Shown: one piece after another, positions 2,705-32,166 of the stretch
Numbering within the stretch: position 1 is the first letter of the stretch
Layout: the number at the start of each line of letters is the position of its first letter
Assembly (NCBI GenBank): GCA_018819015.1
Contig: JAHJQY010000004.1
Location: 1-34,749 of the forward strand
DNA from: Patescibacteria group bacterium
Lineage (GTDB): Bacteria > Patescibacteriota > Minisyncoccia > JAHISW01 > Tagabacteraceae
Reading direction: 5' to 3'
DNA length: 34,749 nt
Program-made: the position numbers and the translations under genes
The notes under the pieces: model-generated
What the model saw: the letters and a program-made list of their open reading frames with translations, nothing else
Database searches by the model: none
What the model was told of the DNA's origin: nothing

Positions 2705-5191
2705 ATGTCTATGTTAACTAAAATTTTTGGCGACCATAACAAGCGTTTTTTAAAAGGCCTTCAGCCTTTAATTGGTTCAATAAATGACAAGGAGAAATCT
2801 TTTGAAAAATTATCCGACAGTGAATTGAAAGAAAAAACTTCCGGATTTAAAAAATTGATAGTTGAAGGCTGCGAGCTGGATGCTATTTTGCCGGAAGTTT
2901 TTGCTGTTGTTCGGGAGGCGGCCAAAAGAACTTTAAACCAGCGTCATTTTGACGTTCAGCTTCTGGGCGGCCTAGTTCTTCATCAGGGCAAAATCGCCGA
3001 GATGAAAACCGGCGAGGGAAAAACTTTAACTGCCACCCTGCCGATTTATCTGAACGCTCTTGAGGGCAAGGGAGTGCATGTTGTGACCGTGAATGATTAT
3101 CTTTCAAGGAGGGACGCGGTCTGGATGGGGCAGATTTACCACGCGCTCGGTTTGTCTGTCGGCTGCATAAATCATGAGGCCAGTTATCTGTATGACCCGA
3201 ATTCAAAACTTGATGAAGAGCGCGACATATTCGGTTCTTTTAAGGTAGTGCATGAATTTTTGAAGCCGTGCTCGCGCCAAGAAGCTTACGCGGCCGATAT
3301 CACTTACGGCACCAATAATGAATTTGGATTTGATTTTCTGCGCGACAGCATGGCTTATGGAAAAGATAATTTGGCTCAGCGAGGTTTTTATTATGCCATT
3401 GTTGACGAGATTGATTCAATTTTGATTGATGAAGCGCGGACACCGCTGATAATTTCAGCGCCGGATGAAGAATCGGCCGACCTTTATAAAACTTTTTCAA
3501 AAATCGTTCCCAATCTTAAAGAAGAGGACCTGTCTGCCCTGTCTGCCGACCAGGCAGGCGGTAGGCATGGACATTACGCAATTGACGAAAAACAAAAAGC
3601 TGTTTCAATAAACGAGGAAGGAATTGAAAAAGTTGAAAAAATATTGGGAATCAAGGATATTTATACGGAAAAAGGGATAAAATACGTGCATCATTTGAAT
3701 CAGGCTTTGCGGGCTCGGGTTTTTTTTAAGCGCGACCGGGATTATGTCGTAAAACCTGCCCGCCCGGGCGGGAGCAATGAGATAATAATAGTGGATGAAT
3801 TTACCGGCCGGCTGATGCCGGGCCGCCGCTGGTCAGAGGGGCTCCATCAAGCCATTGAGGCCCAAGAAGGGGTTTCTGTGCAAAAAGAATCGCGTACGCT
3901 GGCGAGCGTTACTTTTCAGAATTATTTCAGGATGTATAAAAAGCTTTCCGGCATGACCGGCACGGCGCTTACTTCGGCCGAAGAATTTTATAAAGTTTAC
4001 AGTCTTGAAGTTATTGCTGTTCCGACAAATAAAATTTTAATAAGAAAAGATAGTTCTGATTTGGTTTATCCGACAGAGCAGGGGAAGCTGAAAGCTGTTG
4101 TCGGGGAAATAAAAGAGCGGCACGAAAAAGGGCAGCCGGTTCTTGTCGGCACCGTTTCAATTGAGAAAAACGAATACTTGTCGGCTCTTTTAAAAAAAGA
4201 AGGAGTGCCGCATCGGCTTTTGAATGCCAAGCATCACGAGGAAGAAGGGGAGATTATCGCTCAGGCGGGCAAAAAAGGAATGGTGACGGTGGCGACCAAT
4301 ATGGCCGGTCGTGGCGTAGACATAGTTTTAGGGGGTAACCCTCAAAACCCCGAACAAAGTCGAATTGTTTGCGAGGCTGGAGGTTTGTACGTGATTGGTA
4401 CCGAGCGGCACGAGGCGCGGCGCATAGATAATCAGCTGCGCGGCCGTTCCGGCCGCCAGGGCGATCCGGGCGAGAGCAGATTTTTTGTTTCTTTGGAAGA
4501 TGATTTGATGCGTGTTTTTGGTTCGGAAAAAATAAAAAATATGATGGCTAGCATGGGCGTTCCGGAAGACCAGCCGATTGAGAATAAATTTGTTTCCCGG
4601 GCGATTGAGTCGGCGCAGGCAAAAATAGAGGGAATAAATTTTGACGCCAGAAAACACTTGCTTGAGTATGATGATGTTTTGAATAAACAGCGAGAAAAAA
4701 TTTACAAACTAAGGCGGGAAATTCTTTTTGCGGGGAAAAATGAATTGGATGAAATTATTGATGGGTTAAAGATGGAGGATAAGCCCGCCTTCGTCAAGAC
4801 TACGGCGGGCAAGGAGAAAGAATTCGGCGTGGAGCAATTTTTTGAAGTGAAGAGAAATGTTTTTTTGCGCGTGATTGATATGCTTTGGATAGACCACTTG
4901 GAAGTAATGGCCTATATGCGTTCTTCTGTCGGTTTGCGCGCTTATGGCAATCAGGATCCGCTGGTTGAGTATAAAAACGAGGGGATGAGATTATTTAAAG
5001 ATTTGGAAAGAGCCATCGGCGCGACTTTTGTTAGTTTGATTCAGAATGTGCAGAAACAGGAAAATCAGCCGCCAGTAGGAGTTGCGGCGGGCTTGCCTGT
5101 TAGAGATTCTACTACCGATGGAAAAGTCGGGAGAAATGATCCCTGTCCTTGTGGTAGCGGCAAAAAGTTCAAAAAGTGTTGCGGAATATAA
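2705..5191 (+). CDS. secA: Preprotein translocase ATPase SecA (start moved from 2666 to MSMLTKIFG)
   Basis: MKTGEGKT Walker A, VHVVTVNDYL, YAIVDEIDSILIDEARTPLIIS, DEFTGR, ATNMAGRG, RIDNQLRGRSGRQGDPG, C-terminal SEC-C motif CPCGSGKKFKKCC. The 2666 start lies inside the terminator. Confidence 0.97.
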   Translation: MSMLTKIFGDHNKRFLKGLQPLIGSINDKEKSFEKLSDSELKEKTSGFKKLIVEGCELDAILPEVFAVVREAAKRTLNQRHFDVQLLGGLVLHQGKIAEMKTGEGKTLTATLPIYLNALEGKGVHVVTVNDYLSRRDAVWMGQIYHALGLSVGCINHEASYLYDPNSKLDEERDIFGSFKVVHEFLKPCSRQEAYAADITYGTNNEFGFDFLRDSMAYGKDNLAQRGFYYAIVDEIDSILIDEARTPLIISAPDEESADLYKTFSKIVPNLKEEDLSALSADQAGGRHGHYAIDEKQKAVSINEEGIEKVEKILGIKDIYTEKGIKYVHHLNQALRARVFFKRDRDYVVKPARPGGSNEIIIVDEFTGRLMPGRRWSEGLHQAIEAQEGVSVQKESRTLASVTFQNYFRMYKKLSGMTGTALTSAEEFYKVYSLEVIAVPTNKILIRKDSSDLVYPTEQGKLKAVVGEIKERHEKGQPVLVGTVSIEKNEYLSALLKKEGVPHRLLNAKHHEEEGEIIAQAGKKGMVTVATNMAGRGVDIVLGGNPQNPEQSRIVCEAGGLYVIGTERHEARRIDNQLRGRSGRQGDPGESRFFVSLEDDLMRVFGSEKIKNMMASMGVPEDQPIENKFVSRAIESAQAKIEGINFDARKHLLEYDDVLNKQREKIYKLRREILFAGKNELDEIIDGLKMEDKPAFVKTTAGKEKEFGVEQFFEVKRNVFLRVIDMLWIDHLEVMAYMRSSVGLRAYGNQDPLVEYKNEGMRLFKDLERAIGATFVSLIQNVQKQENQPPVGVAAGLPVRDSTTDGKVGRNDPCPCGSGKKFKKCCGI
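3529..3570. repeat. Nested pair of 21-bp palindromic mini-elements in frame in secA
   Basis: CCTGTCTGC[CCTGTCTGCCGACCAGGCAGG]CGGTAGGCATGG; removing 42 bp restores ..KEEEHYAIDEK.. Confidence 0.75.
3759..3772. repeat. CCCGCC-n-GGCGGG palindrome in secA
   Basis: Perfect 14-bp palindrome CCCGCCCGGGCGGG encoding part of the extra peptide PARPGGS between DYVVK and EIIIVDEFTGR. Confidence 0.6.
4783..4810. repeat. CCCGCC-n-GGCGGG hairpin element in secA
   Basis: GCCCGCC-TTCGTCAAGACTAC-GGCGGGC encoding PAFVKTTAG, GC-rich in AT-rich context. Confidence 0.7.
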
Positions 5192-5208
5192 AAAGCTAAA
5201 AACCTAAA

Positions 5209-5295
5209 CGGAGAGGGCGAGATTCGAACTCGCGGTGGCGTTTCCGCCACAACGGTTTTCAAGACCGCCGCCTTCAACCACTCAGCCACCTCTCC
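5209..5295 (-). tRNA. tRNA-Ser(UGA)
   Basis: Reverse complement GGAGAGG..GCGGT-CTTGAAA-ACCGT, long variable arm, GTTCGAATC T loop; CCA not encoded. Confidence 0.95.
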
Positions 5296-5311
5296 ATTTA
5301 CGAGTATAGGT

Positions 5312-5758: not shown

Positions 5759-6511
5759 TTAGTTGTTGGAAACGCGCAATTCAACTTCTTTAGCAAGTCG
5801 TTCCTTGAAATCTTTAAGTAGTTGGTGGTGCCCGACAGGTAAAAATATCTTTAATTCTTTTTCCCAGCCGTTTTGTTTTGCCAAAAGAGCCAGTAGTTTA
5901 TCTTTCAGGTTTTCTAATTTTGGTACATAGTTTTTCAGTTCGGGATTTCTTAAAATGAAATAGAGGTCAAAGTAGTCTCGGGGCTTGGCTCTGTCCAAAA
6001 GAGCCAAAACTTTTTCAGCGACTAACTTGTTTTCTCCAAGAAAAATAATTGTGTAAGGAGGCAGAAAGTCGCTTTGTATTAAAATGCTGTTACTGCTCAT
6101 TTCTTTTGCTTGCCGAAAAGACACCTGAATTTTTATTTTAGAATTAAAATCAAGCAGTTTTAAATTAACGAGACAAAAATATCCTTCACTTGTTTCTCCT
6201 TCGGTTCCCGCGTTAACAGTTTTTTCACAATTAATGCCTTCTTTTTTAATTTCGTCCAAGGTTGCGTTAATCAATTTGTTTATATCGGCAATGGTGAGTT
6301 CGTTGGCGGCGGAAAAATCCAAGTCCTCTGAAAACCTCGGGCTTTGAAAAACTATTCGCAAGGCCGTTCCTCCCTTGAAAAGCATTTTTTCAGAGCCATT
6401 CTTCTTATAGAGATAAGATAAAAATAAATGCTGGCAGTATTCTCTGGCAATGTTTTCCTCCGATGTTTGGTTCTTGACGCTTAATTCGTTTATGAATTTA
6501 TGAGAAATCAT
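5759..6511 (-). CDS. AbiEii-family nucleotidyltransferase toxin (type IV TA, DUF1814-like)
   Basis: LFKGGTAL, RFSEDLDF, AEKVLAL, RDYFDL motifs; overlaps the upstream antitoxin by 14 bp. Confidence 0.9.
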   Translation of the reverse strand: MISHKFINELSVKNQTSEENIAREYCQHLFLSYLYKKNGSEKMLFKGGTALRIVFQSPRFSEDLDFSAANELTIADINKLINATLDEIKKEGINCEKTVNAGTEGETSEGYFCLVNLKLLDFNSKIKIQVSFRQAKEMSSNSILIQSDFLPPYTIIFLGENKLVAEKVLALLDRAKPRDYFDLYFILRNPELKNYVPKLENLKDKLLALLAKQNGWEKELKIFLPVGHHQLLKDFKERLAKEVELRVSNN

Positions 6512-7118
6512 ATTTTAGGTTTTTTACTAAATCTAAAAATGCCTTATTTTTCCTTAAATGTTTTTTGAAAAAATTAACATAAAAATCAAGTTGTTTTTTA
6601 TCTAGTTTGTTTAAGTTTAGTCGTTCGTTAATTGGTAGTTTTTTTAACGACGCCAAATATAAATAGTCCAACAAGGCTTTTTCTTTGTCTGCCATTCGTA
6701 TTGTTTTATCCCTGATTTTAACGGGCGAATAGCCAAAGAAAAAATTCTTTTTAATTTTGATGTATTGATAAGACTGGTTCTCAAATTCAAAAGTTTTTGG
6801 GGCTTTGGTGGTGGCGGAAATTATCGTATAGACGGTTTCTGGAATTAGGCCGTAATAAGACATTGCTGTTTCAAAAGATATATAAGAGGGCTGGTGCAAA
6901 TAATTGGCAATTTCAAACTTTGCCAGAAGTTCGCTGGCCAGACAGTAGGCGCCCCTTTTGAGCCTTCTAAAAGCCCCTGTTTTTGTATTGTAACTCAAAA
7001 AAGCCCGTGCCGTTTTGGGGTCTACATTAAAAGTCCTTGCGAAGTCTTTTGTAGAAAATATGCTTATTTTACGTAGCGAGAGTGTTTTTTGTACAGAAAT
7101 GAGTTTCAGTTTGTCCAT
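6498..7118 (-). CDS. AbiEi-family antitoxin / transcriptional regulator
   Basis: N-terminal wHTH-like region ending LKRGAY, PSYISFETAMSYYGLIPE, EKALLDYLY; TGCTATAAT at 7142-7150 on the minus strand. Confidence 0.88.
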   Translation of the reverse strand: MDKLKLISVQKTLSLRKISIFSTKDFARTFNVDPKTARAFLSYNTKTGAFRRLKRGAYCLASELLAKFEIANYLHQPSYISFETAMSYYGLIPETVYTIISATTKAPKTFEFENQSYQYIKIKKNFFFGYSPVKIRDKTIRMADKEKALLDYLYLASLKKLPINERLNLNKLDKKQLDFYVNFFKKHLRKNKAFLDLVKNLKYDFS

Positions 7119-7303: not shown

Positions 7304-7951
7304 ATGAGCAGTCAATTAAACAAAAATTTTGTAAGAATATGCGCGGAAACTCTGCCTATCCAAGAGCCGATTTACGAGTTTGGTTCTTTGCAAGTAGAGG
7401 GTAAATTTGCAGACCTCCGTCCATATTTCCCAGAAAAAAAATATGTCGGCGCTGATATGCGGGAGGGATTAGGGGTTGATGTCATTCTTAACCTGCACAA
7501 CATAGACTTGCCAGACAAATCAGTTGGAACGGTTATTGTTTTAAGCACGCTGGAACACGTAGAATTTGCCCGAAAAGCAGTTGAAGAAGCCCACAGAATA
7601 CTCAAACCTAATGGAGTTTTAATAATCAGTTCGGTTATGAATTTTCCAATACACGATTACCCGTCCGATTATTGGAGATTTACTCCCGAAGGGTTCAAAA
7701 GCCTTTTAAGACCGTTTGAAACATCGTTTGTAGAATTTGTCGGAGAGAAAAGTTTTCCTCATACCATAGTCGGAGTGGGCATTAAGGGAATAATATCGGT
7801 GGGGGACGAATTTGTAGAAAGAATTAAACAAATGAAAGCGGACGCAAGGTATGATTTGGTATATTTGATAAAGTCCATTGCTCCGCCGTTTCTTGTGCCA
7901 ACGCTTCGTAAAATTTATAACAAAAGCAAATTTTGCGGGGGGTGGAATTGA
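7304..7951 (+). CDS. Class I SAM-dependent methyltransferase (start probably ATG 7304 rather than TTG 7268)
   Basis: IYEFGS motif I variant, YVGADM, GVDVILNL, LEHV, HRILKPNGVLII, HDYPSDYWRFTPEG. The 3' end overlaps the antisense tRNA. Confidence 0.82.
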   Translation: MSSQLNKNFVRICAETLPIQEPIYEFGSLQVEGKFADLRPYFPEKKYVGADMREGLGVDVILNLHNIDLPDKSVGTVIVLSTLEHVEFARKAVEEAHRILKPNGVLIISSVMNFPIHDYPSDYWRFTPEGFKSLLRPFETSFVEFVGEKSFPHTIVGVGIKGIISVGDEFVERIKQMKADARYDLVYLIKSIAPPFLVPTLRKIYNKSKFCGGWN

Positions 7952-8004
7952 ACCACCTACCTGGAGGTTATGAGCCTCCCGTGCAACCGTTACACTTCCC
8001 CGCG
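7933..8004 (-). tRNA. tRNA-CAU, initiator-like Met (atypical)
   Basis: CGCGGGG/CCCCGCA acceptor with C1:A72 mismatch, GGAGG-CTCATAA-CCTCC anticodon arm, GGTTCAATTCC T arm. Confidence 0.85.
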
Positions 8005-8109
8005 GCAAATGCGTCAAGGCGCAATATTTTTACTTTACAATAAAATTTTTATTATTGCAATCTGGCGGTTTTTACGCTAAATTATATTGTATAAATATTA
8101 AAGGATGAG

Positions 8110-8183
8110 GCCGGGGTAGCTCAGTTGGTTAGAGCATGGGACTCATAAACCCAAGGTCGTGAGTTCGATTCTCACCCTCGGCA
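8110..8183 (+). tRNA. tRNA-CAU (elongator Met or Ile2; cannot be distinguished by eye)
   Basis: GCCGGGG..TAGCTCAGTTGGTTAGAGC..TGGGA-CTCATAA-ACCCA..GTGAGTTCGATTCTCAC..CCTCGGCA. Confidence 0.9.
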
Positions 8184-8198
8184 CATTGAAAAATTTTT

Positions 8199-8317: not shown

Positions 8318-8944
8318 TCACCGCGCCGCGACTAGCCCGATTACTTTTTTCGCGCCGGCCTTTTTCAAGGCCCGGCGCGCTTCGTTTATCGTGGCGCCGG
8401 TGGTTGAAACATCGTCCAGCACGAAAATTTCCTTGTCTTTTATGAGTTCGGCATTTTTTACCGAAAAAGTCCCTTCAAGATTTTTTAATCTTTTTTGCCT
8501 GTCTTTTATTTCAACCTGGGAAACCGTATGGCGATTTTTATAAAGGACATTAGTCAGGATTTTAACAGACATTATTTCAGACAAGTGCCGGGCGATTAAC
8601 TCTGCTTGATTAAAGCCCCGTTCCCGTAAGCGTTTAGGGGAAAGCGGAATCGGAATAATAACCAATGTTCGAAGTTCAACTTCGAACATTGGGGACAAGC
8701 GGGAAGATAGAAGTTCAGCCAGGGGTTTGGCGGCTCGCCCGGCTTTTTTATATTTCAGCGCTTTGATAAGTTTTTTAATGACGGGCGATTCATAGGACGC
8801 GGCGCCGAAGATATCGGGCTCATTTTTTTCTGTTTCAGGGTACGGCAATTTCGCCGCGCATTTTTGGCATAATAAGATTTTTTCTTTTCCGCAGCCGAAA
8901 CATTTTTCAGGGAAGATTAGGTTTAAAATGGAATTTATCCACAT
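8318..8944 (-). CDS. comF: ComF family competence protein (phosphoribosyltransferase fold); likely start ATG 8944
   Basis: FPEKCFGC..CQKC zinc ribbon, LKY, IPIPL..RERGFNQAE, VLDDVSTTGATI PRT motif. Confidence 0.9.
   Translation of the reverse strand: MWINSILNLIFPEKCFGCGKEKILLCQKCAAKLPYPETEKNEPDIFGAASYESPVIKKLIKALKYKKAGRAAKPLAELLSSRLSPMFEVELRTLVIIPIPLSPKRLRERGFNQAELIARHLSEIMSVKILTNVLYKNRHTVSQVEIKDRQKRLKNLEGTFSVKNAELIKDKEIFVLDDVSTTGATINEARRALKKAGAKKVIGLVAAR
8662..8692. repeat. TCGAAGTT(C/G)AACTTCGA palindrome, copy 1 (inside comF)
   Basis: CCAATGTTCGAAGTT-C-AACTTCGAACATTGG, perfect 15-bp arms. Confidence 0.85.
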
Positions 8945-9006
8945 AGCGTTATTATTGCAATATAATAAACTATTTTTTGTGATATAATAAAATTGTAAGA
9001 AATGCA

Positions 9007-10113
9007 ATGGCAAAAAACATTTTTACCGAGTTTTTTCCGAAAATAATCAGAATCTGGTCGCAGCATCAGAGTGTTGTTGGTGTGGACATTGGCAGTTCGT
9101 CAATAAAAATTGTGCAATTGAGAAAAGAAAAAGAAAGGGCGTTTTTGGAAACTTACGGCGAGCTGGCCGCGGGGCCTTACGTCAAACAGCCCATCGGCCA
9201 AATTGTGCAGTTGTCCGAGGGAGTGGCAACCGAAATGCTGAAAGATCTTTTTAGAGAATCGGGCGCCAACGCGAAAGAGGCGGCCGTGGCTATTCCGGTT
9301 AAAAGCAGTTTTATCACGACAATCAAGGTTCCGATGGTGGAAGACAAAAAAACCATGGATGAAGTGATAAAATTTGAAGCGCGCAAATATATCCCCGTTC
9401 CGTTTAATGAGGTGGAGGTTGATTGGTGGATTTTGAATACCAGCGAGCCGGAATCTTCGGGTATTGCAAAAAGACAAATAGTGGAAGTGCTTCTGGCCGT
9501 TATCTATAAGGATGCCATTCGAAAATATCAGAATATTTTGTCCGGTTCCAATTTAAAAATAAAATTATTTGAGGTTGAAATTTTTAGCGGATGGCGTTCC
9601 TTGATTTTCAGGCCGACGACGCCGGTGGCAGTCATTGATTTGGGGGCTTCTTCCACCAAGATGAGTATTGTTGAAGCCGGAGTCCTGCGTTCGTCGTTTA
9701 CGATTGATGCGGGCGCCTGCGCCATAACCAACGCCATTTCAAGATCGCTGGGAATCAGTTTTGAGAGAGCCGAAGAAATGAAACAGCAGATAGGTCTTTC
9801 GTCAAAGCCGGAACACAAAGACATTGTAAAAGTTTCAGAATCTGTTTTAAATTTAATTTTTTCAGAGGCCAAGCAGTTTATCCACGCTTATAACAGGAAG
9901 TACAATAGTTCTGTCGGACAGGTGGTTCTGTCGGGAGGAGGAGCGCTGTTGAACGGAGTTGTGGATATGGCCGTTAAAAATTTAGGCGTGGAGGTTGTGC
10001 TGGCCGATCCGTTCGCAAAAACAGATTATCCTCCGTTTTTGCAGGGGGTTTTGAAAGAAATCGGCCCGACATTTTCAACCGCCGCGGGATTAGCCTTAAA
10101 AGGATTATCATAA
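9007..10113 (+). CDS. pilM: Type IV pilus assembly ATPase-like protein PilM
   Basis: VGVDIGSSSIK, EARKYIP, IDLGASST, VVLSGGGALL, C-terminal TAAGLALK (actin/FtsA fold). Confidence 0.93.
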   Translation: MAKNIFTEFFPKIIRIWSQHQSVVGVDIGSSSIKIVQLRKEKERAFLETYGELAAGPYVKQPIGQIVQLSEGVATEMLKDLFRESGANAKEAAVAIPVKSSFITTIKVPMVEDKKTMDEVIKFEARKYIPVPFNEVEVDWWILNTSEPESSGIAKRQIVEVLLAVIYKDAIRKYQNILSGSNLKIKLFEVEIFSGWRSLIFRPTTPVAVIDLGASSTKMSIVEAGVLRSSFTIDAGACAITNAISRSLGISFERAEEMKQQIGLSSKPEHKDIVKVSESVLNLIFSEAKQFIHAYNRKYNSSVGQVVLSGGGALLNGVVDMAVKNLGVEVVLADPFAKTDYPPFLQGVLKEIGPTFSTAAGLALKGLS

Positions 10114-16968: not shown

Positions 16969-17763
16969 ATGAGTTATAATAAAAACATGCTAACGCATGT
17001 TTTTATTATTGTTTTTGGCGCCGCGGTCGGCAGTTTTTTGAATGTAGTCATTTTTCGGCTTAACAGCGGAGAGTCGTTTTTGGGGGGAGAGTCGCGCTGT
17101 TTTTCCTGCGGCAAAAAACTTAAATGGCGCGAGCTTGTTCCGGTTTTTAGTTTTTTGATTCAAAAAGGCAGATGCCGCGGCTGTGGCAGTAAAATATCTT
17201 GGCAATACCCGGCAGTAGAAATAATAACAGGCGTATTGTTTTTGGCAACTTTTCAACTATCGAAGTTCAACTTCGATAGTTGCGATATTTGTTGGTTTCT
17301 TTATCCTTATATTTGGCTGCTTGTTAGTTTGTTAATAATTATTGCCGTTTATGATTTGCGGCATTTTATAATTCCCAATAAAATTGTTTGGATTTTTAAT
17401 GTTTTGGCGTTTTTAAACTTACTGGCGCACACAAAATATGCGAAACCCGGTTTCGCTTTTTTATCCGGGGTTGTCTTTTTTTTATTTTTTGCGGCATTGT
17501 GGTTTTTGTCAAAAGGAAAGTGGATGGGTTTTGGCGACGCGAAACTGGCTTTGGGTTTGGGTTGGCTGCTGGGCCCGGTTAAAACATTTTCAGCTTTTTT
17601 GATTTCTTTCTGGTTGGGGGCGTTTGTCGGCCTGTTGCTGATCGTTCTTAAAAAGGGCAAATATACCATGATGAGCAGGATTCCTTTCGCGCCGTTTCTT
17701 ATAGCCGGTTCGCTTTTATCGTTTTTTATTAATTTTGATATTTTAAGTTTTTTTAATTTTTAA
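16969..17763 (+). CDS. pilD: Prepilin peptidase / N-methyltransferase (start could be ATG 16987)
   Basis: GSFLNVVI, SRCFSC..GRCRGC, YPAVE, catalytic YDL and GFGDAKL, IPFAPF. Confidence 0.93.
   Translation: MSYNKNMLTHVFIIVFGAAVGSFLNVVIFRLNSGESFLGGESRCFSCGKKLKWRELVPVFSFLIQKGRCRGCGSKISWQYPAVEIITGVLFLATFQLSKFNFDSCDICWFLYPYIWLLVSLLIIIAVYDLRHFIIPNKIVWIFNVLAFLNLLAHTKYAKPGFAFLSGVVFFLFFAALWFLSKGKWMGFGDAKLALGLGWLLGPVKTFSAFLISFWLGAFVGLLLIVLKKGKYTMMSRIPFAPFLIAGSLLSFFINFDILSFFNF
17254..17282. repeat. TCGAAGTT(C/G)AACTTCGA palindrome, copy 2 (inside pilD)
   Basis: CAACTATCGAAGTT-C-AACTTCGATAGTTG, perfect 14-bp arms. Confidence 0.85.
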
Positions 17764-22456: not shown

Positions 22457-23017
22457 GTGCAAAAAGAAACTAAAATCTTAATAGGAAAAATTATATTGGC
22501 CACAATTGCTTCAGCCGGAATTTTAACAGTAGCAGCCGTGGCGCCCAATGCCTTGCGGGCAATAGATTTATTTCGTGATAAAAAGAAAAGAAAATATCAT
22601 ATGGGTTCTTATGTGAATAGAAATTTTGAAAGACTAAAAGACAGGGGCTTGATTAAATTTGAAAAACGAGACGATAAAAGTTTCGTTCGGCTCACCGAAA
22701 AAGGCCAGCGAGAATTATTAAAATATCAATTGCGGGAGGCGATTATTAAAAAACCGAGATGGTGGGATAAAAAATGGCGGGTTGTTATTTTTGATATTAA
22801 AGAAAGCGCGCGTAATCTTAGAAAGGGCTTAAGGCAGGAATTGGTTAATTTGGGTTTTGTTAAATTACAAAATAGTGTTTGGGTATACCCTTATGAATGT
22901 GGGGAGGTGATAATTATGCTGAAATCTTATTTTTGTTTAGGGAAAGATGTTTTATATATGACGGTTGATAAAATAGAGAATGATAAGTGGTTGAAGCAGG
23001 AGTTTGGTTTGAGTTAG
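22457..23017 (+). CDS. PaaX-like protein: N-terminal hydrophobic helix, wHTH, Cas2-like (PaaX central) domain
   Basis: RLKDRGLI..VRLTEKG wHTH wing; WDKKWRVVIFDI..R..LR..L..LGFVKLQNSVW Cas2-like ferredoxin fold; GTG start. Confidence 0.85.
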   Translation: MQKETKILIGKIILATIASAGILTVAAVAPNALRAIDLFRDKKKRKYHMGSYVNRNFERLKDRGLIKFEKRDDKSFVRLTEKGQRELLKYQLREAIIKKPRWWDKKWRVVIFDIKESARNLRKGLRQELVNLGFVKLQNSVWVYPYECGEVIIMLKSYFCLGKDVLYMTVDKIENDKWLKQEFGLS

Positions 23018-30837: not shown

Positions 30838-31284
30838 ATGGATGCTTCTAAAGTTAAAGAATTAAGAGAAAAAACCGGCGTTTCCGTGATGCTTTGCAAA
30901 AAGGCGCTGGAGGATTCAGGCGGCGACGAAGTCGGCGCCATGGAGTGGCTAAAGAAACAGGGAGTTGAGGCCGCCGAAAAAAAATCCGGCCGCAGCACTA
31001 AGGCGGGCGTTATGGAAGCTTATATCCACAACAACGGCCAAATAGGCGTTTTGGTTGAACTTCGCAGTGAAACCGATTTCGTCGCTAAAAATCCGGATTT
31101 TAAAGAAATTGCGCATAATATCGCTTTGCATATTGCCGCTTCGTGCCCTGATGGTACGAAAGATTTGCTCGAACAGCCGTATATAAAGAACCCGGAGATT
31201 ACAATCGCCGAATATCTGAATGAATCCATACAAAGATTCGGCGAAAATATAGAAATTGCCCGTTTTGAACGTTTTGTTTTGTAG
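30838..31284 (+). CDS. tsf: Elongation factor Ts, short form (148 aa)
   Basis: VKELREKTG..M.CKKAL, ELRSETDFVA, LLEQPYIK, GENIEIARF. Confidence 0.93.
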   Translation: MDASKVKELREKTGVSVMLCKKALEDSGGDEVGAMEWLKKQGVEAAEKKSGRSTKAGVMEAYIHNNGQIGVLVELRSETDFVAKNPDFKEIAHNIALHIAASCPDGTKDLLEQPYIKNPEITIAEYLNESIQRFGENIEIARFERFVL

Positions 31285-31297
31285 CTGTAATTATATT

Positions 31298-31657
31298 ATG
31301 ACTTTTTTGGAAGTTTTAATTTTGATATTTTTTCTGTCTCTAATCGGGATTATTTGTTTGTTTGGCTGCCGCGCTTATTTTAGCAGGCATCTGGACAACA
31401 AGGAGCTTTTGAAAGAAATTTCCTCCAGTAAGCCGCTTTTTTCATTTAAAATAAATTTAAGTTTTCTTTCCGGCCTGTTTCTTGGTTTGGCAAAAAAGTC
31501 GGAATTTTTTAAAAAACATTTTTTTAATTTTAAAGATTATGTGAACGGCAAGCACCCGGTGGAAAGCAGTGGCTGCAGGGGATATTGGGATAAATTGAAT
31601 GGTTGCAATGGGGATAAAAATAAAAAAGAAGATTGCCAGGATAGCTCAGTTGGTTAG
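31298..31657 (+). CDS. Hypothetical membrane protein (likely start ATG 31298)
   Basis: N-terminal TM helix; the stop codon falls inside the broken tRNA-Thr 5' half. Confidence 0.5.
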   Translation: MTFLEVLILIFFLSLIGIICLFGCRAYFSRHLDNKELLKEISSSKPLFSFKINLSFLSGLFLGLAKKSEFFKKHFFNFKDYVNGKHPVESSGCRGYWDKLNGCNGDKNKKEDCQDSSVG

Positions 31658-31674
31658 AGCAATGGTTTTGCCCG

Positions 31675-31767
31675 CCCCGTTAGAGCTGGAGTAGCTCAGT
31701 TGGTCAGAGCAACGGTTTTGTAAACCGTAGGCCGCGAGTTCGAATCTCGCCTCCAGCTCTAACGGGG
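31675..31767. mobile_element. Inverted-repeat-bounded cassette (CCCCGTTAGA ... TCTAACGGGG) enclosing the intact tRNA-Thr
   Basis: 10-bp perfect terminal inverted repeats at 31675-31684 and 31758-31767, directly abutting the tRNA ends; mobility is inferred. Confidence 0.45.
31685..31758 (+). tRNA. tRNA-Thr(UGU)
   Basis: GCTGGAG/CTCCAGC acceptor, ACGGT-TTTGTAA-ACCGT anticodon arm, GCGAGTTCGAATCTCGC T arm; CCA not encoded. Confidence 0.95.
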
Positions 31768-31794
31768 TAAATAGGTCGTGAGTTAATTATCCAA

Positions 31795-31830
31795 CCCCAA
31801 CTGTTCGAAGTTGAACTTCGAACATTGGGG
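31795..31830. repeat. TCGAAGTT(C/G)AACTTCGA palindrome, copy 3 (intergenic)
   Basis: CCCCAA-C-TGTTCGAAGTT-G-AACTTCGAACA-TTGGGG; nearly identical to the reverse complement of the comF copy. Confidence 0.85.
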
Positions 31831-31884
31831 GGTTGTTGGGGAAAATATTTGAATGATTTTGTTTGTTGTAGTATATTAAAAATT

Positions 31885-32166
31885 ATGACAGTACGAATGA
31901 GACATACTAAATCCCATACGGGCAGAAGAAGATCGCACCACAGTTTAAAAAAGGCGGTTTTGCCCTTGTGCGCGAAATGCGGCGAGAAGAAATTTCCCCA
32001 CAGGGTCTGCAAGAATTGCGGCACTTATAAAAAGAAGTCGATTTTGGATGTTCTGAAAAAATTAACAAAAAAGGAAAGGAAGAAGAAAGAAAAAGATTTG
32101 GCGGAAAAAGAGAAAGAGCAGACAAAAGGAAAGGAGTTAAGCGCGGAGGAATTATCTAAAAAATAA
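31885..32166 (+). CDS. rpmF: 50S ribosomal protein L32 with a Lys/Glu-rich C-terminal extension (start ATG 31885)
   Basis: HTKSHTGRRRSH, CAKCG..PHRVCKNCGTY. Confidence 0.93.
   Translation: MTVRMRHTKSHTGRRRSHHSLKKAVLPLCAKCGEKKFPHRVCKNCGTYKKKSILDVLKKLTKKERKKKEKDLAEKEKEQTKGKELSAEELSKK

Follow-up and report, generated by a model that had tools for sequence, protein, structure and literature searches.

A tRNA-Thr(UGU) gene lies within the anticodon of a broken tRNA-Thr(UGU) gene in a Patescibacteria genome

In the interval between tsf and rpmF of a Patescibacteria genome, a dead tRNA-Thr(UGU) gene, the resident one, holds a live tRNA-Thr(UGU) gene nested exactly between its bases G35 and T36. The stretch analysed, referred to as the window, comprises all 34,749 nucleotides of contig JAHJQY010000004.1 (assembly GCA_018819015.1) and comes from a member of the Candidate Phyla Radiation (CPR) that is related to the Paceibacteria and has a GC content of about 40 %. 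The insert of about 97 bp contains an intact inner tRNA gene between two complementary arms, and we classified the event as the disruption and functional replacement of a tRNA gene by inserted DNA. The reading we favour, with a probability of roughly 40 %, is that this stem-tRNA-stem fragment entered the resident gene a single time and that descent or recombination then carried it further, with the arms now serving as a clamp for folding and processing.

All parts of the nested locus lie on the plus strand. It starts with the 5' half of the outer, resident tRNA-Thr (GCCAGGATAGCTCAGTTGGTTAGAGCAATGGTTTTG, 31635-31670), a pseudogene fragment of 36 nt that covers tRNA positions 1-35, carries a GCCAGGA acceptor strand and ends in U33-U34-G35. 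Acceptor strand, D arm and anticodon-stem strand of this half are normal, and 32 of its 36 aligned positions are identical to an intact tRNA-Thr gene in the relative L147 (L-numbers are the labels of the related loci that were compared with the window). A CCCG spacer (31671-31674) leads to the 5' arm CCCCGTTAGA (10 nt, 31675-31684), which covers the inner tRNA's leader from -10 to -1 and is the perfect complement of the 3' arm. The inner tRNA-Thr(UGU) (31685-31758/9, acceptor GCTGGAG, discriminator T31758) was called by ARAGORN, matched Rfam family RF00005 with 76.9 bits (E = 2e-15) and adopted a cloverleaf in the minimum free energy (MFE) fold; its gene does not encode CCA, the triplet CTA standing in this place. 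The 3' arm TCTAACGGGG (31758-31767), which pairs with the 5' arm, is composed of the discriminator, the mutated CCA and the trailer. Together with the acceptor stem, the arms form a 17-nt inverted repeat of 100 % complementarity (31675-31691 and 31751-31767). The outer gene then resumes at T36 with TAAATAGGTCGTGAGTT (31768-31784), and its 3' remnant (31768-31794) ends in decayed sequence. A preliminary description, made from the letters alone, had given this series of parts for 31635-31784 and had joined arms and acceptor stem into one 17-bp helix; inspection of the sequence, ARAGORN and Rfam bore this out.

When the cassette is removed, the joined outer pieces align to the GCCAGGA-type gene of L147 over positions 1 to about 60, and the only gaps are 3 nt in the 3' strand of the anticodon stem (ACC/CCA) and 2 nt in the T loop. 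The 3' remnant is recognisable at positions 36-55 (TAAA-TAGGTCGTGAGTT), lacking the ACC of the anticodon stem and the CG of the T loop. Neither the T stem nor the acceptor stem has a recognisable 3' strand in the alignment to L147, which makes the outer copy a pseudogene. The inner gene is the working one, and no other tRNA-Thr at this locus is usable. Both 5' halves form a 29-nt direct repeat with 93 % identity. Upstream, a small conserved open reading frame (ORF) of 119 aa with an N-terminal membrane helix (31298-31657, plus strand), called as a gene in L001 and L002, lies between tsf and the tRNA; homologues of 114-134 aa occupy the same place in all close relatives, and no Pfam match was found for the protein. 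The final 23 nt of the ORF and its stop codon fall within the outer 5' half, and because the ORF terminates there, the outer gene marks the ancestral, resident position. The gene rpmF (ribosomal protein L32, 31885-32166, plus strand) forms the downstream edge of the variable interval.

Close relatives, with EF-Ts proteins 65-70 % identical, share the order SLT, prfA, rpmE, rpsB, tsf, small ORF, tRNA-Thr(UGU), rpmF and nusB/NUDIX, followed in some by rnc, and more distant Paceibacteria and Saccharibacteria likewise have a single tRNA-Thr(UGU) gene after tsf. Besides a short EF-Ts of 148 aa and a NusB-NUDIX fusion, the window encodes type IV pilus and competence-like genes. An uninterrupted GCCAGGA-type gene had been predicted for a relative, and L147 has exactly one such clean gene at the position between the small ORF and rpmF. 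L054 and L152/L153, the nearest neighbours of the window by protein distance, each carry one clean gene of the inner GCTGGAG type without arms; single tRNA-Thr genes of other acceptor types occupy L141-144, L148, L060 and L151.

The same cassette with the same junctions at G35 and T36 was found in L145 (GCA_028711505.1) and the Logan contig L146, where the layout is ...GTTTTTG / TCCG / TCCCTTTAGA / GCTGGAG...CTCCAGC / TCTAACGGGA / TAATTAGGTCGGACG..., TCCG taking the place of the CCCG spacer. The 5' arm TCCCTTTAGA and the 3' arm TCTAACGGGA of L145 match the window arms at 8 and 9 of 10 positions, giving the common pattern YCCC.TTAGA ... TCTAACGGGR. One arm pair has changed in a compensatory manner (the outermost C-G to T-A), one is broken and eight are unchanged, too few sequences for statistics. 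As in the window, the ACC of the outer anticodon stem is missing next to the junction. The outer 5' half of L145 is gone, and its 3' remnant aligns with correct spacing to the GCCGATG-type 3' half of L055, L058 and L060, including the 3' end ...CATCGGCT; by this alignment it looks like a tRNA-Thr type different from that of the window. In a neighbour-joining tree of five proteins, the ingroup was star-like with bootstraps mostly below 55 %, so that the lineages could not be ordered, and the window and L145 were sisters in 0 of 300 bootstraps, at a distance of 0.46, among the largest in the ingroup. A scan of GTDB species with EF-Ts yielded no close relative (nearest genomes at most 45 % identical), showed that the linkage of tsf and tRNA-Thr is conserved and brought up the Saccharibacteria locus L032 described below. 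Among the matches listed in a metagenome scan with an EF-Ts alignment, where relatives had at most 54 % identity, there was no further cassette-bearing locus.

To assess the arms, Watson-Crick pairing between the flanks was counted over 10 positions in 45 distinct tRNA genes of the window and the related loci. The genes had 0-6 matches with three exceptions, namely the inner gene of the window (10), its counterpart in L145 (9) and L032 (10); the arm stem is thus far beyond chance. No flank pairing was found in the other four tRNAs of the window. In L032 (5078-5190), a tRNA-Thr(UGU) gene after tsf is flanked by a perfect 13-bp complement of leader and trailer (TCGTCCGTTGTGA and TCACAACGGACGA) that extends the acceptor stem. 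Its sequence is unrelated to the window arms, and there are neither flanking tRNA fragments nor nesting. The window arms likewise continue the acceptor stem with zero spacing, and the 3' arm looks like the tRNA's own discriminator, CCA and trailer, as judged from GCTGGAG-type genes without a clamp: the trailers of L054 (TCCAACAG, T-CCA-ACAG) and L153 (TCCAATGG, T-CCA-ATGG) both resemble the T-CTA-ACGG of the window.

In both MFE and centroid folds computed in silico, the 10-bp arm helix and the 7-bp acceptor stem are coaxial with the 5-bp T stem, amounting to a helix of about 22 bp; the predicted fold is strongly stable (z-score -6.8). In its native context, the inner acceptor stem has a mean pair probability of 0.997 with the arms; this value falls to about 0.54 with a shuffled 5' arm (minimum 0.002) and is 0.78 with the leader of L054. 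Some of the competition can be traced to GTTAGAGC of the outer D arm, a possible pairing partner of GCTCTAAC at the inner 3' end. The outer gene and the 5' arm have GTTAGAGC in common; an origin of the arm from the D arm was nevertheless discarded, this sharing being judged compatible with chance (roughly 0.15). In an E-value scan of 31250-31950 against Rfam, only the tRNA family was found, all other matches being far below their gathering scores and none belonging to an intron family.

For the origin of this arrangement, we propose that the anticodon loop of the resident tRNA-Thr gene received, in one event, an insert of about 97 bp. Its source would be a GCTGGAG-type tRNA-Thr gene of a related lineage together with about 10 nt of its own trailer. 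The 5' flank would be an inverted copy of this trailer, produced by snap-back or template-switch synthesis that was primed on the acceptor-stem repeat and started at position -1. The cell would have survived such an insertion only because the same essential tRNA comes with the insert. From there, the interrupted allele may have persisted and reached at least two lineages by descent, by homologous recombination via the flanking tRNA-derived and ribosomal-gene homology, or by both. Recombination with short co-conversion would explain the common junction and the 3-nt deletion despite the differing distal outer sequences, and these organisms carry genes for DNA uptake. A single origin of the junction is favoured over repeated transposition because the window and L145 have the same 3-nt deletion. 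We infer that recombinational spread fits the data better than strict vertical descent or repeated transposition, and that the cassette is not a proliferating transposon.

No promoter-like site was found upstream of the tRNA on the plus strand, whereas one at 31849-31877 precedes rpmF; we therefore propose that the tRNA is transcribed by read-through from rpsB, tsf and the small ORF. In the transcript, the arm helix, stacked on the acceptor and T stems, would lock the inner cloverleaf against mispairing with the nearly identical outer half. Leader pairing with the 3' RCCA, by which the acceptor stem is extended, reportedly inhibits the productive RNase P complex (PMC9433436). As the leader here is predicted to be fully paired, a prior opening step is implied: a double-strand-specific nuclease of the RNase III type would have to open the helix before RNase P cleavage, 3' trimming and CCA addition could proceed. 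The first enzyme to consider would be RNase III itself, whose gene rnc is found two genes past rpmF in several relatives.

Several points weigh against a single inherited insertion whose arms act as a clamp. The cassette is known from only two lineages, and selection on the arms rests on one compensatory versus one disrupting change in L145, which by our estimate has a probability of roughly 5-10 % by chance. The stabilisation seen in silico is nearly guaranteed for any added 10-bp helix. The pristine outer 5' half of the window, with all tRNA hallmarks, is easier to reconcile with a recent insertion than with an old one that was inherited. The two apparent types of outer remnant would be explained most simply by two independent insertions, that is, by true mobility. 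Finally, the breaks at G35^T36 with G/C-rich ends in L151 and L058 (described below) hint at a site-specific activity.

These points lead to the main rival, in which the stem-tRNA-stem unit is a true non-autonomous mobile cassette that is site-specific for G35^T36 of tRNA-Thr(UGU), is moved in trans and survives by replacing the gene that it breaks. The mover would be a Y1/HUH transposase acting on single-strand hairpins (IS200/IS605-like 'peel and paste', a mode that duplicates no target sequence) or an endonuclease that drives homing. This is essentially the view of the preliminary description, and we treat it as a serious rival, somewhat less probable than the single insertion. It would account for the clean insertion 3' of TTTTG in both lineages without duplication or deletion of the target, for outer remnants of apparently different types (a GCCAGGA 5' end in the window, a ...CATCGGCT 3' end in L145) and for the fact that the two hosts are not sisters. 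However, searches of the window, about 175 related loci and viral contigs brought up no further copy of the arms, whether empty or around cargo. Within the 34.7-kb window, there were only two matches with one mismatch, compared to 1.13 expected by chance. In the related loci, the arms occurred solely at the tRNA-Thr locus; of the expectation that they should recur in the clade, the orthologous site of L145/L146 with the same anticodon position thus held up, but no other site and no other cargo was found. In the viral collection, the left junction of the cassette gave 0 matches, the one match of the right junction was dismissed as chance (inside a coding region, no tRNA), and a scan with EF-Ts led to distant genomes only. 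In the rpsB leader of L039, a metagenome-assembled genome of the Clostridia (3099-3195), CCCCGTTAGA, TCTAACGGGT and TCTAACGGGGTAAAT are present, and TCTAACGGGGTAAAT amounts to a 15-nt identity with the right junction of the window; because there is no tRNA and the phylum is unrelated, we treated this match as a probable coincidence.

Further evidence on mobility comes from the neighbourhood, as the tsf-rpmF interval is a hotspot for hairpin elements, insertion sequences (IS) with Y1 transposases and a GIY-YIG gene. A Y1_Tnp gene (IS200-like, Pfam E = 3e-9) lies between tRNA-Thr and rpmF in L148 and L152/L153, bounded by hairpins such as CCAACTATCGAAGTTCAACTTCGATAGTTGG, and the Y1_Tnp elements of the clade end in hairpins of the type CAACTATCGAAGTT-C-AACTTCGATAGTTG. 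In the window, the outer remnant is directly followed by the palindrome CCCCAACTGTTCGAAGTT-G-AACTTCGAACATTGGGG with the G-rich tail GGTTGTTGGGG (31795-31844, no strand assigned; palindrome itself 31795-31831). This tail matches an element end in L148 (GGGGGGTTG..GGGG, with the L148 tail GGGGGGTTGGGG), so the segment is, by its sequence, probably the solo end of an IS with a Y1 transposase, and the loss of the 3' end from the outer gene is probably due to this Y1-type element. The palindrome belongs to a repeated family, (C)CAAYTRTCGAAGTT-N-AACTTCGAYARTTGG, with three copies in the window (8662-8692, 17254-17282 and 31795-31831) versus 0.05 expected. Two of them are in frame within inter-domain linkers, one in an ORF for a ComF-like phosphoribosyltransferase (8318-9013, minus strand) and one in a prepilin peptidase ORF (16969-17763). 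Nearly identical hairpins bound the Y1 transposase genes of L153 and L148 and also occur inside the ORFs of these transposases. Solo hairpins in the window and hairpin-ended elements in the same interval speak for a mobile cassette, but BLAST detected no similarity between the cassette arms and the hairpin ends of the clade's Y1 elements, and a scan of 19 window ORFs with 110 aa or more, roughly half of the listed ones, revealed no gene for a transposase, Y1 or other, or for an endonuclease.

Broken tRNA-Thr copies in relatives can be read in the same direction. In L055 (3332-3766; also L056 and L057), a 40-nt GC-rich hairpin interrupts a 5' fragment of tRNA-Thr (positions 1-23) behind position 11; a second hairpin precedes the fragment, and an 82-aa GIY-YIG ORF and a complete tRNA-Thr follow it. 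The 40-nt hairpin recurs with 87.5 % identity upstream of rpsB in L080 (1558-1630), beside a similar second hairpin, indicating that small GC-rich hairpins move between genomes of the clade. In L058 (3326-3559), a sequence-perfect 3' fragment (positions 43-76) stands 45 nt past a complete tRNA-Thr, and its T loop contains an 84-nt insert made of two hairpins; the second of these includes the anticodon arm of the tRNA itself in circular permutation, with a GC stem closing it (CGCCG / TAAACCGTA-cap-CTGGTTTTG / CGGCG). About 5 nt past the intact GCCGGGG-type tRNA-Thr of L151, the sequence GCAAAATTTTG / AAGCATCGGGA / TAAACCGTAG (2162-2200) may be a decayed anticodon arm broken at G35^T36 with a CGGGA end as in the L145 arm. 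A G35^T36 break with G/C-rich insert ends (CGGGA or CGCCG) may therefore recur in up to four lineages, the cases of L151 and L058 being suggestive only. Partial tRNA-Thr genes beside a whole copy were detected by BLAST in the close clade only (about 150 loci). A window hairpin at 1355-1384, considered as a relative of the L058 insert, was dismissed because it is part of the murB coding sequence. The window (22457-23017) and, as an insertion between tRNA-Thr and rpmF, L058 (3644-4198) contain ORFs of about 185 aa with a PaaX_M (Cas2-like middle) domain, a small gene family that seems to be mobile within the clade.

Set against mobility are three features of the cassette itself. The inner tRNA has the same anticodon arm and hence would also be open to insertion, the arms join the acceptor stem directly and the 3' arm resembles a native trailer, and the ACC deletion common to the window and L145 favours one junction origin. 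The narrower idea of a palindromic mini-element that captured a whole tRNA, put forward in the preliminary description, is not demonstrated and is contradicted by the absence of other cargo and of a target duplication, by the zero spacing, by the trailer-like 3' arm and by the stem of L032. A bolder version, rather improbable in our view, is a 'selfish tRNA gene' that homes into G35^T36 of tRNA-Thr(UGU), kills the resident, becomes indispensable and spreads among Patescibacteria by DNA uptake and a Y1/HUH enzyme or a homing nuclease; the broken copies with GC-rich hairpin inserts in L055, L058 and L151 would then be traces of the same conflict.

The favoured single insertion also has to be compared to a history without foreign DNA, in which tandem tRNA-Thr copies suffered deletions and the acceptor-stem repeat seeded quasi-palindrome template switching. 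That inverted repeats can be perfected and lengthened by template switching is well established, L032 demonstrates that such stems arise without nesting, and whole genes stand beside fragments in L058 (3' fragment), L055 (5' fragment) and L151 (anticodon-arm remnant). The outer gene of the window, however, breaks off after G35 and continues with T36 without any loss or duplication at the break, which would require two deletions at one phosphodiester bond, and the same again in L145. Because two independent deletions must end at the same bond, tandem copies are far less parsimonious than one insertion, and we regard them as improbable.

We considered it very improbable that the inner tRNA is an intron-like processing module which RNase P and RNase Z excise while the arms hold the outer halves together, leaving both tRNAs functional. 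The arms do stand directly after the 5' half and directly before the 3' half, a layout known from archaeal split and intron-containing tRNAs. The GC-closed, permuted anticodon arm of L058 and the outer types, which seem diverged as if still functional, would also suit such a module. But the outer gene is broken in both cases, the window lacking the 3' strands of T stem and acceptor and L145 lacking the 5' half; no Rfam intron family matched, and we know of no bacterial enzyme that rejoins an anticodon at 35/36.

A chimeric join of two tRNA-Thr alleles during assembly or binning, a doubt raised at the outset, is practically negligible: assemblers can be misled by tRNA repeats, and the Logan contig L002 does stop inside the palindrome just downstream, but three concordant assemblies from different samples and the recurrence of the architecture with diverged sequence in L145 and L146 rule it out. 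Positions 31601-31800 are identical in the two further assemblies, ENA ERZ27247117 (contig k141_130457, L001) and Logan SRR6514730 (L002), and the neighbouring EF-Ts protein is encoded on three other contigs. About 30 nt downstream, a strain-level indel lies inside the palindrome (window 31819-31826, AACATTGGGGGG; L001 3980-3990, AACAGTTGGGGGG), which distinguishes the ENA contig as a separate assembly.

If the favoured insertion is correct, the locus is a natural example of an essential tRNA gene replaced from inside, its anticodon broken and the same function supplied by the insert. It would also illustrate an addiction-like fixation of DNA in a minimal genome where each tRNA species is probably encoded by a single gene. 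The transcript would be a rare bacterial pre-tRNA with a leader predicted to be fully paired to its trailer, an awkward substrate for RNase P and RNase Z that implies an extra opening step. With its Y1 insertion sequences, solo hairpins, GIY-YIG gene and interrupted tRNA fragments, the tsf-rpmF interval offers a compact system for studying small-hairpin mobility in CPR bacteria. Were the cassette a one-off scar only, it would be a curiosity, yet one relevant to annotation, as the small ORF runs into the 5' half, which may itself be miscalled.

Two other parts of the window deserve mention. An AbiEii toxin and AbiEi antitoxin pair (type IV toxin-antitoxin system of the abortive-infection type; 5759-7118, minus strand) sits between tRNA-Ser (5208-5296) and tRNA-Met genes (7933-8184) and represents another accessory insertion adjacent to tRNA genes. 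The 300-nt intergenic stretch between an epimerase gene and murB (1020-1320) contains several strong hairpins, for example at 1077-1106 and 1124-1150, had no Rfam match at the gathering score and could be an uncatalogued small RNA or a cluster of terminators.

A literature search for nested or interrupted tRNA genes in CPR bacteria returned nothing relevant, and a whole tRNA in the anticodon of an isoacceptor gene is unreported within the literature covered, which is incomplete. The cassette can nevertheless be placed among several known systems. Like a miniature inverted-repeat transposable element, it has terminal inverted repeats, 17 nt long and perfect, but 7 of these nt are the acceptor stem and the other 10 are contiguous with it. 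The target site is not duplicated, as the outer tRNA runs from 35 to 36 between the flanks ...GGTTTTG and TAAATAGG..., and multiple copies, sites or contents were absent from the window, the related loci and the viral scans. With IS200/IS605 elements and their hairpin derivatives (PATEs, REP/REPIN with RAYT), the cassette shares the small size, the hairpin ends, the lack of a target duplication and a fixed 5' flank (TTTTG in the window and L145, possibly a third time in L151). In contrast to them, its ends jointly form one long hairpin instead of separate left and right hairpins and do not match the Y1 hairpins of the clade by BLAST, the arms extend an acceptor stem, and the cassette is single-copy in the sequences searched.

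Integrative elements that target tRNA genes, tyrosine-integrase islands and prophages whose sublocation classes, reportedly set out by Williams in 2002, include the anticodon loop, resemble the cassette in that a foreign segment lies in this loop and the element maintains tRNA function. The cassette differs by having neither an ORF in its 97 bp, and thus no integrase, nor a repeated att core at its two junctions, and by supplying a whole, independent tRNA rather than a 3' replacement fragment, the resident being dead. Archaeal intron-containing, split and permuted tRNA genes, which depend on bulge-helix-bulge splicing and include the split tRNAs of Nanoarchaeum, likewise have an intervening segment in the anticodon loop whose ends pair next to the tRNA halves. 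Here, however, the host is bacterial, the break is at 35/36 instead of the usual 37/38, the insert is a whole tRNA, and the outer exons are incomplete, lacking the 3' strands of T stem and acceptor.

Long perfect helices formed by the flanks of a stable RNA within a longer transcript are known from bacterial rRNA operons, where RNase III processes the leader-trailer helices (PMC10250234). The predicted folds of the cassette show a comparable continuous duplex of about two helical turns. Such helices are rare on tRNA precursors (3 of 45 surveyed genes), and that of the cassette is known from predicted folds. Intervening sequences of CPR bacteria have been described in rRNA genes (PMC11270868), whereas the cassette interrupts a tRNA gene. 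Free-standing homing endonucleases in tRNA gene regions, finally, are represented by SegB of phage T4 (PMC2330249). No endonuclease gene lies in or next to the window cassette, and its inner tRNA would have the same target; yet in L055-57 a GIY-YIG gene stands between a broken and an intact tRNA-Thr, and co-conversion during homing would explain the common junction scars.

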